Source: a virus
Taxonomy: Duplodnaviria > Heunggongvirae > Uroviricota > Caudoviricetes
Virus record (IMG/VR): IMGVR_UViG_2534681988_000034
Strand: one strand, 5' to 3'
DNA length: 8,554 nt
Shown here: positions 4,688 to 6,832 of the stretch, piece by piece
Numbering within the stretch: position 1 is the first letter of the stretch
Layout of the letters: each line of letters starts with the position of its first letter
The notes under the pieces: model-generated
The model's database searches: none
What the model was told of the DNA's origin: nothing
The model's input: only the letters and a program-made list of their open reading frames with translations
Translations under genes and position numbers: made by a program

Positions 4688-4964
4688 AAAAACTCCTGCC
4701 CGTAAGCTGGGCTGCTGAACATATAAAGACTTCTGCGCGTATTCAGGCGGTGGATGGCCGCCGGTTGTCATAACTAAGCCGCCTCGTTGAAGCGACTAAG
4801 GTATGAAATGTTGAGTTGATTTCAGCTGGTCACACCGACGTTCACGCGTCCGTTTCATCCCTCGCACTCCCCGAAGCCTGCTGAAATTCAAGCTGCGGAT
4901 CTAAGCGGTCATCGCAACGGTGAATCAGGTGATTGCCGTATCGTTGTGTTGTTGCGATGAACTC

Positions 4965-4993
4965 ATTTAAAACTATAGTTGTTTTATCGTCAA
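4965..4993 (-). promoter_or_regulatory. Putative early leftward promoter pL (-35 TTGACG, 17-bp spacer, -10 TTAAAT)
   Basis: Minus-strand reading: TTGACG (rc of 4988-4993), 17 nt, TTAAAT (rc of 4965-4970); predicted start near 4957. The block is near-identical to the pR block upstream of cro (TTGACT-AAAAACAACCATAGTT-TTAATC). Confidence 0.5.
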
Positions 4994-5040
4994 CAACAAA
5001 AGTTGTTTTGTTGGTTGTTTTAGATATAACTGGTTGTATT
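4971..5040. promoter_or_regulatory. Putative OL operator cluster (repeated GTTGTT/AACAAC half-sites)
   Basis: Perfect 16-bp palindrome AACAACAAAAGTTGTT (4992-5007), inverted repeat GTTGTT-8-AACAAC (4978-4997), palindrome AACTATAGTT (4971-4980), and further GGTTGTTTT / GGTTGTATT copies (5013-5040). The same half-site TGGTTGTT/AACAACCA occurs in the cI-cro intergenic region. Confidence 0.45.
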
Positions 5041-5130
5041 TAAGATGGATTTATTTTGTGACTTGCATCGCATAGCGATAACTGAAGCGAGGTCGTGGTG
5101 GTTTTTTTGAACGGTGTATGATGAGGGGAG

Positions 5131-5163
5131 GGCAAAAGAAAACCCGGCACGGTGGCCGGGTTT
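5131..5163 (-). terminator. Putative Rho-independent terminator closing the cI operon
   Basis: 9-bp stem AAACCCGGC(5140-5148)/GCCGGGTTT(5155-5163) with 6-nt loop. On the minus strand the hairpin is followed by UUCUUUUG. Lies about 75 nt downstream of the 147-aa gene stop and upstream of OL/pL. Confidence 0.5.
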
Positions 5164-5237
5164 AGATGATTGGTTAAGAGCGAGGGTAATGGGGAATGAA
5201 AAATCGCTTTACCTAATGCAAGGGTGCGAGCATTTTC

Positions 5238-5681
5238 TTAAGCACTAAAGAAAAAGTACATTGATAGCTTATAAAGTCCTGTTCCTGCAGCGATGATTGC
5301 TGGAACACCAAGCAATACCGCAAGCTTTGCGTCTGAAATCTTTCTATCGACAGCATCACTTGATGGCTTGTTTGTTAAGGATTCTTTTATAGAGTCCAGA
5401 CGTGCAAGAATAGTTATCATATTTTTGTCGATAGCTTTAACGTCTGTTTTAAGTTCATCAACGTCTCGTTTGATATGAGCAACATCGGACTCCAGTTTTG
5501 CAACTTTTTCAGGCATGTTATCACTCCCAGACCCACTGCTACCACTTGATTGTAGCATGTCCCATCTTTTTCCAGATATACCTGCTAGCTGGGAAGACGC
5601 ACTGGAGTGCAAACAAAATGATTCTGCCGCCTTTGCAATTTTATCATTTAGGTTTGGAGCTTCGTAATAATCGTGTTTCAT
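5238..5681 (-). CDS. Hypothetical coiled-coil protein with C-terminal transmembrane anchor (147 aa), in the rex-equivalent position
   Basis: Minus-strand ORF 12 nt downstream of the 87-aa gene. Ser/Gly-rich linker (SSGSSGSGS), heptad-like coiled-coil segment (KVAKLESDVAHIKRDVDELKTDVKAIDKNMITILARLDSIKESL), and hydrophobic C-terminus (LAVLLGVPAIIAAGTGLYKL). No SD before the first ATG; an internal ATG (rc of 5514-5516) has GGGAG at 7 nt and would give a 92-aa form. Region is AT-rich by eye. Confidence 0.6.
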   Translation of the reverse strand: MKHDYYEAPNLNDKIAKAAESFCLHSSASSQLAGISGKRWDMLQSSGSSGSGSDNMPEKVAKLESDVAHIKRDVDELKTDVKAIDKNMITILARLDSIKESLTNKPSSDAVDRKISDAKLAVLLGVPAIIAAGTGLYKLSMYFFFSA

Positions 5682-5693
5682 AATTAATTACGA

Positions 5694-5957
5694 TTAGTTT
5701 GTTTTAGCTTTGTCATGCTGGTCGCGAATGAAGTCAGCCAATTTAAGCATCAATTCTTCGGGCATTCTAATGGTTGCAATGTTGTACTTTATGTTCTCAA
5801 CATCGTCACTTTCATCAACAGGCCATTCAGTTACATTATGAAAAAAAGAAATTGAACCTAGGCGCTGAGAGCCGTCACCAAACGAAGAGTAGCCAAACGC
5901 GTCGGCGTATGCATCGACACAGTTATTTGATTTTTTAACAAGTGTTTTATTACTCAT
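5694..5957 (-). CDS. Hypothetical small acidic protein (87 aa), first gene of the module downstream of cI
   Basis: Minus-strand ORF 81 nt downstream of the cI stop. ATG (rc of 5955-5957) preceded by AAAGG at 5 nt. Acidic C-terminal half (WPVDESDDVENIKYNIATIRMPEELMLKLADFIRDQHDKAK). AT-rich codon usage unlike the flanking Red and cI genes. No family recognised. Confidence 0.6.
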   Translation of the reverse strand: MSNKTLVKKSNNCVDAYADAFGYSSFGDGSQRLGSISFFHNVTEWPVDESDDVENIKYNIATIRMPEELMLKLADFIRDQHDKAKTN

Positions 5958-6038
5958 TTTTGCCTTTCCCGTAATGTTATTTTTTATAAGGTATTTTCTT
6001 CAGCGTATTACCCAAAAGCCTCATCAACACGCGGCTGA

Positions 6039-6728
6039 TTATCCGTGTTTTCTGTACGTCTGCGGCATGCTCCCAATAACCTTACCGAATATGAATACCC
6101 GGTTCATCTCGTCTTTCTCGATAGGGTCCCACGGTGAGTAGCTCTTGTTATCAGAGATAACCAGCAGTTTATCCTTCATCATTTGCAGGCGCTTTACATG
6201 GGCGGTGTCGTCGTACAGAAATGCATAGATACCATCACCGTCGAAAGATTTAACCGTGATATCAACGAACAGCAGATCACCTGGTTCGATCGTTCCTGAC
6301 ATGCTGTCACCACGCACGTTAATGATGCGGATATTTTCTGCCTTCCTACCATCGAACATGTGACGAGCATCGTCAAACGAGTACTCAACCGAGCGTAGAA
6401 CTTCTACAAACTCACGGTTGATGACTCCCGGCCCAGCACTGACTTCTATATCAAGAACGTCAATCTTGAAGTATTTGGAATGGCTGACAGTTGATTGTAT
6501 TGGTTGCACTGTACTGTCTGACATATTTCCAACGCCAGAAGATAACCATTCTGCGCGCACACCCAAAGCGTTCGCGATCTCCACGATTTTAGTTGTTTGA
6601 TTAGCTTTCCCTGTTTCGATTTTCTGAATAGCAGCCTGGCTAACCCCGACCAAATCCCCAAGCGCCTTTTGTGTAAGGCCTCGCGCTAATCTGGCTTCTT
6701 TAAGTCTTTCTGAGAGTGTTGTTTTCAT
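6039..6728 (-). CDS. cI: CI-type prophage repressor (N-terminal XRE-family HTH + C-terminal S24/LexA-like autopeptidase)
   Basis: Start chosen at MKTTLSERLKEARLARGLTQKALGDLVGVSQAAIQKIETGK (ATG rc of 6726-6728), a typical HTH_3 N-terminus; the 22 codons upstream cover the operator region. C-terminal domain has an Ala-Gly cleavage site (VSAGPG), catalytic Ser in GDSM and Lys in VKRL, as in LexA / lambda cI. Divergent from cro. Confidence 0.85.
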   Translation of the reverse strand: MKTTLSERLKEARLARGLTQKALGDLVGVSQAAIQKIETGKANQTTKIVEIANALGVRAEWLSSGVGNMSDSTVQPIQSTVSHSKYFKIDVLDIEVSAGPGVINREFVEVLRSVEYSFDDARHMFDGRKAENIRIINVRGDSMSGTIEPGDLLFVDITVKSFDGDGIYAFLYDDTAHVKRLQMMKDKLLVISDNKSYSPWDPIEKDEMNRVFIFGKVIGSMPQTYRKHG

Positions 6729-6832
6729 AGTCCAAATGTACAACCAAGGTTTTATTCCATCAAACGAAAATGGTTGTTGACTAAAAACAACCATAGTTTT
6801 AATCTTGATTCAAATTAACCACGGAGGTTGTT
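6729..6832. promoter_or_regulatory. OR operator region with divergent promoters pR (plus, for cro) and PRM (minus, for cI)
   Basis: pR: TTGACT (6777-6782), 17-bp spacer, TAATCT (6800-6805), then GGAGG RBS and cro ATG at 6833. Inverted repeat TGGTTGTT(6771-6778)/AACAACCA(6786-6793) overlaps the pR -35 and spacer. PRM (minus): TTTGAT (rc of 6759-6764), 18 nt, TACATT (rc of 6735-6740), ending 6 nt before the cI ATG, implying a leaderless cI mRNA as in lambda. Confidence 0.55.

Follow-up and report, generated by a model that had tools for sequence, protein, structure and literature searches.

Every lysogen expresses the genes that lie behind its prophage repressor, and these genes often determine which other phages are able to infect the cell. 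The textbook cases are rexAB of phage lambda and sieA of phage P22 and, to our knowledge, neither mechanism is fully understood. In lambda, the immunity region has the order cI–rexA–rexB–tImm, and RexB is a multi-pass membrane protein. Here we describe a two-gene module in an 8,554-nucleotide stretch of viral DNA (IMG/VR record IMGVR_UViG_2534681988_000034), called the window below, which comprises the early and immunity region of a lambdoid prophage. The genes encode an 87-residue soluble protein, referred to as the partner, and a 147-residue protein with a coiled coil and a single hydrophobic helix at its C terminus. On the evidence of position and sequence, they are uncharacterised modular prophage cargo in the rexAB/sieA position. 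We tentatively read the pair as a phage-exclusion or defence module expressed in lysogens, a reading that we place a little short of an even chance.

The gene order of the window invites comparison with the lambda rex unit. The minus strand carries int, exo, bet, gam and kil, then the 147-residue gene, the partner gene and a cI-type repressor with helix-turn-helix (HTH) and S24 domains, and the plus strand carries genes for a cro-like YdaS protein, a cII-like YdaT protein and replication protein O. Half-sites of the oR operators recur at 4965–5045, where they overlap the leftward promoter, with one copy (I3) being 95% complementary over 19 nt. This oL/pL is situated downstream of the 147-residue gene and its terminator, and no minus-strand terminator was found between cI and the gene pair, so that cI, the partner gene and the 147-residue gene form one unit within the immunity region. 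As with rexA and rexB, the two genes follow cI on the same strand, lie between oR and oL with a terminator before pL, and encode one soluble and one predicted membrane protein. In other respects they differ: there is no sequence relationship to RexA or RexB, no Rex family was found among the Pfam, PHROG, PADLOC and NCBIfam matches of either protein, the proteins of the window are much smaller (87 and 147 residues), and the larger one combines a long coiled coil with one C-terminal helix, unlike RexB. A further two-gene arrangement is that of mycobacteriophage Sbash, in which the gp30/gp31 pair reportedly joins a cytoplasmic protein to a membrane protein. A published account presents gp30/gp31 as a Rex-like, prophage-expressed defence (PMC6426596). 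Our pair resembles it in having two genes expressed from a prophage and differs in belonging to another host phylum, a likeness that is one of description only.

A first-pass annotation, made by a model from the letters of the window and a list of their open reading frames (ORFs), had read the frame at 5238–5681 as a 147-residue protein with an SSGSSGSGS linker, a heptad coiled coil and a single C-terminal hydrophobic helix, and had likened it to XhlA-type membrane-active proteins. The three structural points held up. The linker is SSGSSGSGSDN in full. Residues 56–104 form a seven-heptad coiled coil of unbroken register, with L, I, V or M at 14 of the 14 a and d positions. The most hydrophobic 19-residue span is 118–136 (Kyte–Doolittle mean 1.8, compared with 0.5 for the second-best span), with about 10 residues beyond the segment. 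Gly, Pro and Ala are abundant in it, its value on the Hessa scale is marginal (approximately +1.4 kcal/mol), and we regard it as probably a membrane helix, though not a very hydrophobic one. An AlphaFold2 monomer model built on a 35-sequence alignment, of low confidence (predicted local distance difference test (pLDDT) score of 61) and usable for secondary structure only, contains a weak helix at residues 11–33, disorder at 34–55, a long helix at 56–103 (pLDDT of approximately 80), a break at N-K-P-S and a last helix at 108–146. The partner is modelled as a beta-sheet with a C-terminal helix (pLDDT 78).

This architecture is conserved. One hydrophobic helix ending no more than 15 residues from the C terminus was found in 60 of 64 diverse relatives. 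The spacing from R-V-A-x-L-E to K-P-S falls into two classes, 45/46 and 52/53 residues, which are 7 residues apart; a difference of one heptad fits a need to keep the coiled coil in register. The ratio of nonsynonymous to synonymous substitution rates (dN/dS) in the core is 0.09–0.13, indicating strong purifying selection. Given this conservation of architecture, heptad spacing and core sequence, we judge that the layout exceeds chance. The lone hydrophobic helix lies within about 30 residues of the C terminus, with no N-terminal signal or other transmembrane (TM) segment, as in the tail-anchored class, and by these features the 147-residue protein is a predicted tail-anchored protein consisting of a cytoplasmic N-terminal extension, a flexible linker, the coiled coil and the membrane helix. 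Residues 105–119, before the helix, contain five lysines and arginines, versus one after it. A K/R-rich N-terminal flank predicts an N-in, C-out anchor, which would leave nearly the whole protein, together with its partner, in the cytoplasm.

The proposed kinship with XhlA did not survive as a family assignment. XhlA acts in a holin–endolysin lysis cassette with the holin XhlB and the endolysin XlyA (PMC5589764). Bacillus PBSX XhlA and the 147-residue protein are both small, have their coiled coil N-terminal to a membrane helix at the C terminus and show weak, sub-threshold profile similarity, but this is a resemblance of layout only. The Pfam XhlA profile (PF10779) scored 12.1 bits (E = 0.23) against a gathering score of 34.7, and when 30 diverse relatives were scanned, 4 matched XhlA at E < 0.01 versus 14 for the generic FlaC_arch; generic coiled-coil families scored equally or higher. 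Sub-threshold matches to PHROG 'hemolysin' families (phrog_1193, E = 1.4e-4; phrog_937, E = 1.2e-3) point the same way as the layout, towards a lysis accessory that would assist a holin in membrane permeabilisation as the lytic cycle ends. The position of the gene largely refutes this possibility, which we consider very improbable: rather than in a lysis cassette, the gene sits between cI and oL/pL on the repressor transcript, a terminator separates it from the early lytic operon, and a holin or endolysin gene is nowhere near. The hosts also belong to different clades, and we know of no variable N-terminal extension or partner for XhlA.

Family searches placed both proteins among uncharacterised groups. 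The 147-residue protein falls in phrog_3556 (E = 1.5e-58) and the partner in phrog_4231 (E = 7e-54), neither of which has a functional annotation. A profile search of 1.84 billion representative proteins returned a small family of 56 clusters at E ≤ 1e-10, approximately 30 of them covering the TM helix; the remaining hits were generic coiled-coil or Gly-rich matches, with no bridge to a named family. Members share a common plan, in which a variable N terminus and a Gly-rich run are followed by M-E-x-R-V-A-x-L-E, the coiled coil, K-K-P-S-x-D-A-x-D-K-K-I and a C-terminal helix that leaves only a very short tail. When the two proteins were scanned against Pfam, NCBIfam and PADLOC, the outcome was only sub-threshold generic coiled-coil matches or none. 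A profile search of the PDB with the 147-residue protein found only generic, mostly trimeric, coiled coils (E ≥ 0.003); weak matches to the tail-needle protein gp26 were not taken as meaningful.

The module recurs in enterobacterial prophages. Positions 5100–6040 (941 nt), which span the gene pair, are 100% identical in E. coli O26:H11 strain 11368, in which the prophage is integrated at a tRNA-Arg gene beside fimZ, and in many related strains. The whole module is present in 198 of 5,426 complete E. coli genomes, including O26, O103 and other Shiga-toxin-producing E. coli (STEC). Part of 5100–6040 is matched in 1,784 of the 5,426, the flanks, where cI ends and where the terminator/oL lies, being common to many prophages with other cargo in between. 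The pair also occurs in Salmonella P22-like phages and in prophages of Pantoea, Serratia, Erwinia and Rahnella. Among approximately 70 related loci, it lies directly downstream of the prophage repressor and in the same orientation whatever the repressor type, of which there are at least five, including S24 cI repressors of several specificities, short HTH proteins of 130–139 residues, a 219-residue HTH protein and Mnt. A kil homologue lies approximately 1 kb beyond the pair in related loci, and the module was confined to prophages at every locus examined.

P22-like prophages place the pair beside a second known exclusion gene. There it comes after mnt in the immI region, stop codons overlapping start codons, and in Salmonella phage UPF_BP1 it occupies the interval between gene 16 and mnt, which is the place of sieA and orf59a in P22 (P22 gene order: PMC4837284). 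In the P22-like locus L014 (3496–5154), mnt, a 90-residue partner, a 148-residue homologue and SieA (PF26849) form a four-gene lysogenic operon, with stop and start codons overlapping at the first two junctions. Both sieA and c2 are among the exclusion functions expressed by the P22 prophage, and SieA has three predicted TM segments (PMC10883804). The position of sieA, between gene 16 and mnt/gene 9, is shared by the relatives in UPF_BP1, L010–L014 and L045, but not by the lambda-like window. SieA and the 147-residue protein are both predicted inner-membrane proteins expressed from a prophage. They are not homologous: the Pfam scan gave no SIEA match, and the 147-residue protein has a single hydrophobic helix in place of the multi-pass topology of SieA. 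Because the pair coexists with SieA in the L014 operon, it is not a SieA allele.

This setting raises the possibility that the pair acts at entry, as a tail-anchored inner-membrane oligomer that obstructs phage channel or ejection proteins in the manner of SieA without killing the cell. The pair lies in the mnt–sieA region of P22-like prophages beside the ejection-protein genes 16, 20 and 7, it can replace or accompany sieA, and four helix residues that are invariant in the family (L124, P127, G133 and T134) would suit a specific intramembrane contact. We nevertheless consider an entry block unlikely. The 147-residue protein and its partner are predicted to be almost wholly cytoplasmic, with approximately 10 residues beyond the helix, whereas the entry blockers known to us are multi-pass proteins or have an exposed periplasmic part, and the presence of SieA beside the pair in one operon argues against simple redundancy.

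Comparison of the relatives revealed that the module is built from a constant core and exchangeable parts. The C-terminal approximately 92 residues can be aligned family-wide, whereas the N-terminal extensions fall into eight unrelated clusters and the upstream partner proteins also form unrelated clusters. On inspection, partner types 0, 1 and 4 had looked like remote homologues, an idea that was dropped when hhalign gave a probability below 1% (0 versus 1, and 0 versus 2). The type of N-terminal extension and the type of partner covary without exception over a constant core: Ncl0 occurs with Pcl0 in 30/30 loci, Ncl1 with Pcl1 in 17/17, and Ncl2, Ncl3 and Ncl6 with Pcl2 in 14/14. UPF_BP1 is the converse mosaic, in that its partner and N-terminal extension are E. 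coli-like (84% nucleotide identity) and its core is highly diverged (34% protein identity overall). Adjacency to the repressor and co-orientation with it were seen for N-types 0, 1, 3, 5, 6 and 7. The simplest reading of the covariation is that the extension contacts the partner, and we infer that it is this extension, in the long form of the protein, that the partner binds. Rapid turnover of partner and N-type over a constant core looks like arms-race diversification.

The junction between the variable and constant parts also appears to be a start of translation. The first-pass annotation had pointed out that the ATG at 5681 has no Shine–Dalgarno (SD) sequence and that an internal ATG (5516–5514) is preceded by GGGAG (5528–5524, a spacing of 7 nt), both of which are correct, and had proposed that the real product might be shorter than 147 residues. 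We find support for the internal start but not for replacing the longer product with it. Across 25 distinct sequence contexts, the internal start codon is ATG in 24 and GTG in 1, and the conserved core begins exactly there. An SD match of at least 5 nt, 4–9 nt before this codon, was present in 21 of the 25, whereas 10.9 ± 2.3 were expected when the linker amino acids were fixed per lineage and synonymous codons were redrawn from the genes' own usage (5,000 trials, maximum 19). With one representative per N-terminal type, the count was 7 of 8 versus 3.3 expected (P of about 0.003). The choice of glycine codons follows the same pattern, with GGA or GGG at position −4 in 23/25 contexts and GGT or GGC at position −7 in 14/17, and lineages in which the linker is only D-G-G-D-N still read gat-GGA-GGc-gac-aac-ATG. 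Gene callers often place the gene start at the internal codon. The SD excess, the codon choice at −4 and the near-invariant ATG/GTG together argue for a real internal start, which would probably yield a short isoform of 92 residues containing the coiled coil and membrane helix. Two other candidates were set aside. Homologues annotated as '91-aa' proteins are not true truncations, as their frame stays open further upstream and the GTG after the SD was simply the choice of the gene caller. Met42 (ATG 5558–5556), which the first-pass annotation had listed as a further start, exists in the sequence, but it has no SD in range, the core does not begin there and nothing else supports its use.

Several observations indicate that the long form is real as well. 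The long frame is open and starts with ATG in all relatives, and its first 55 codons have a dN/dS of 0.09–0.19 among L002, L010 and L014, with differences mostly at third positions. The distance from the partner stop codon to the first ATG ranges from −4 to +17 nt across relatives, with the overlap TAATG in L014, and coupling of the first ATG to the partner stop explains why 10 of the 25 first-start contexts lack an SD. Purifying selection, stop coupling and covariation with the partner thus argue for the long form. In the window itself, the first 55 codons (5517–5681) are less constrained (dN/dS of 0.37–0.65 versus relatives), and the sensor end of this allele may be drifting or diversifying.

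Alternatively, a single product could be made: either only the 147-residue protein, the internal SD-like motif being a by-product of glycine codons or a pause site, or only the 92-residue protein, the upstream frame being fortuitously open. Gly-rich linkers often yield GGAGG, as the null expectation of 10.9 in 25 already shows, and the N-terminal region of the window is relaxed. The inherent tendency of a Gly-rich linker towards SD-like sequence is a concern that the redraw control only reduces, and two further points weigh against the case for two products: the lineages in the internal-SD count are not fully independent; and SD-like motifs inside coding sequence can have other effects. On the other side stand the excess over the synonymous null, the GGA/GGG choice at −4 and the near-invariant start codon, which favour a real internal start, and the purifying selection on the N terminus in relatives, the TAATG overlap and the partner covariation, which favour a real long form. 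We are therefore inclined to doubt a single product, and consider it more likely that both starts are used, giving isoforms of 147 and 92 residues, than that there is one short product. From the start sites, the 147-residue form would be expected to be scarce and dependent on coupling to the partner, and the 92-residue form, with its own ribosome-binding site, to be more abundant. There is a precedent in P22, in which Esc is reportedly an antagonist of SieB (Ranade and Poteete, 1993). No homology to this pair was detected, with no SieB family among the Pfam matches, and the likeness is that one exclusion gene yields two peptides, as the 147-residue gene seemingly does from a full-length and an in-frame internal start. 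In P22 sieB, two distinct peptides arise from one reading frame by a translational switch (PMC13397905).

Taking position, modularity and architecture together, we favour a model in which the 147-residue protein would be the membrane component of a two-gene cargo module transcribed with the maintenance repressor in lysogens; a role as a membrane-active effector is plausible from its layout. The partner and the N-terminal extension of the long isoform would serve as a variable sensor or regulator, and the invariant coiled-coil/TM core would be the effector, oligomerising in the inner membrane. The short isoform, abundant because of its own strong SD, might co-assemble with a scarce long one that depends on translational coupling, only the latter being controllable by the partner, so that activity would be set or gated by the two forms. 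When another phage infects and is detected by the partner and N-terminal extension, the complex could permeabilise or depolarise the membrane, as in Rex-like abortive infection, or block genome entry. We prefer the abortive version, which would hold the greater share of the exclusion reading but taken by itself is somewhat unlikely. A constant core with a fast-changing cytoplasmic adaptor, at a repressor-linked location, fits a sensor–effector device better than a block at the surface or at entry. The most far-reaching form of the model, which we regard as rather doubtful, is a new and widespread enterobacterial prophage defence with a constant tail-anchored effector, two nested-start isoforms and exchangeable sensor cassettes that determine which incoming phages set off permeabilisation of the membrane. 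Such a system would be a functional analogue of RexAB made from unrelated parts, with control by isoform ratio that would recall SieB/Esc or holin/antiholin pairs.

A number of findings count against an exclusion role. Immunity-region cargo is not always defensive. In PADLOC-DB v2, the best match of the 147-residue protein was to the coiled-coil stretch of PbeC (E = 0.004), and the partner had none; nothing in NCBIfam matched the pair; and literature searches by locus tag, protein accession, PHROG identifier and architecture returned no publication on the locus. The marginal hydrophobicity of the C-terminal helix makes its stable insertion into the membrane less than certain, and binding of the partner to the N terminus is deduced from covariation. 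In Pantoea and Serratia lineages, the pair lies among tail genes and not behind a repressor. The argument for exclusion is drawn from position, modularity, architecture and isoform data. It is possible instead that the pair has a lysogenic-conversion or maintenance function other than exclusion, as a membrane-tethered scaffold that alters host physiology, a modulator of induction or an addiction pair in which the small protein would be the antidote to the membrane protein. All that co-transcription with the repressor shows is that the genes act in lysogens, a small soluble gene translationally coupled to a following membrane gene resembles antitoxin–toxin operons, and neither protein matches a defence family. 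We hold this to be improbable, as the slot is the classic home of the exclusion genes rexAB and sieA, the turnover of partner and N-type has the look of an arms race, and the module keeps to prophages.

Should the pair prove to be an exclusion system, the defence repertoire would gain a compact and modular sensor–effector design, with consequences for phage therapy and for the phage typing of STEC and Salmonella, and the nested starts would make it a tractable system in which to study the gating of a membrane effector by isoform ratio. Should it prove not to be defensive, the larger protein would still be a conserved, lysogen-expressed membrane protein of important pathogens that is annotated only as 'hypothetical'. 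As a candidate for a new exclusion system, the pair merits experimental testing. The features of the protein and of the immunity region are collected in Table 1.

Table 1. Features of the two-gene module and its surroundings in the window
Feature	Position in window	Strand	Description
Long-isoform coding sequence	5238–5681	minus	147 aa; stop codon 5240–5238; RefSeq WP_012565042, 'hypothetical protein'
N-terminal extension	5681–5550	minus	residues 1–44
Ser/Gly linker	5549–5517	minus	residues 45–55
Coiled coil	5516–5370	minus	residues 56–104
Conserved junction	5369–5325	minus	residues 105–119; K-P-S-x-D-A-V-D-x-K-I-S-D-A-K
Hydrophobic helix	5324–5271	minus	residues 120–137
Short aromatic tail	5270–5241	minus	residues 138–147
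Short isoform (probable)	5238–5516	minus	92 aa, coiled coil and predicted membrane helix; internal ATG 5516–5514
Internal SD-like GGGAG	5524–5528	minus	7 nt before ATG 5516–5514, inside Gly/Ser linker codons
Partner gene	5694–5957	minus	87 aa, soluble, phrog_4231; stop codon 12 nt before first ATG of 147-aa gene
cI-type repressor, first gene of unit	6039–6728	minus	Pfam Peptidase_S24 1.5e-18, HTH_3 6.5e-13; RefSeq start 6728
Strong intrinsic terminator, tImm equivalent	5140–5163	minus	9-bp stem, 6 G-C pairs, T-run; approximately 75 nt past stop of 147-aa gene
oL/pL	4965–5045	minus	AACAAC/GTTGTT half-sites; TTGACG 4993–4988, 17-nt spacer, TTAAAT 4970–4965; repeats I1, I3, I12, I17, D14
oR operators between cI and cro-like gene	6740–6804		repeats D4, I1, I3, I12; palindrome 6770–6794

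Some further features of the window and of related loci were recorded. The cI frame is open to 6794, 66 nt upstream of the RefSeq start; a protein extended into this stretch would be encoded across oR operators, which makes the shorter, annotated start the more plausible one. The leader between pL and kil (4772–4964, minus strand, approximately 190 nt) lacks an ORF for an N-like antiterminator, and an Rfam scan of the window gave nothing, so no known RNA element lies in this leader or opposite the 147-residue gene. In L004 (3537–4381) and L022 (3759–5291), from Pantoea and Serratia, the pair adjoins a DUF6246 gene near the tape-measure gene; the module also travels as a tail-region moron. In other P22-like prophages (L010–L013, 4483–6667), an 85-residue protein, a 217-residue DUF1902 protein and a variable protein of 151–297 residues are encoded between the pair and gene 16, and this extra cargo suggests that the interval is a cargo hotspot. 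One lineage (L063, 4222–4392) has an ORF for a strongly hydrophobic 56-residue protein between the S24 repressor and the pair. A Phaseolibacter prophage (L020, 6673–7077) has a 134-residue ORF consisting almost entirely of Gly/Tyr/Asp/Ser repeats downstream of the pair, where ORFs on the opposite strand and in other frames are repetitive too. Finally, elsewhere in the same O26 prophage, outside the window (L001 13500–14296; NC_013361 623691–624487), a gene for a HEPN-domain protein is followed by an overlapping 133-residue hypothetical gene, and the two are possibly a toxin–antitoxin or defence pair.

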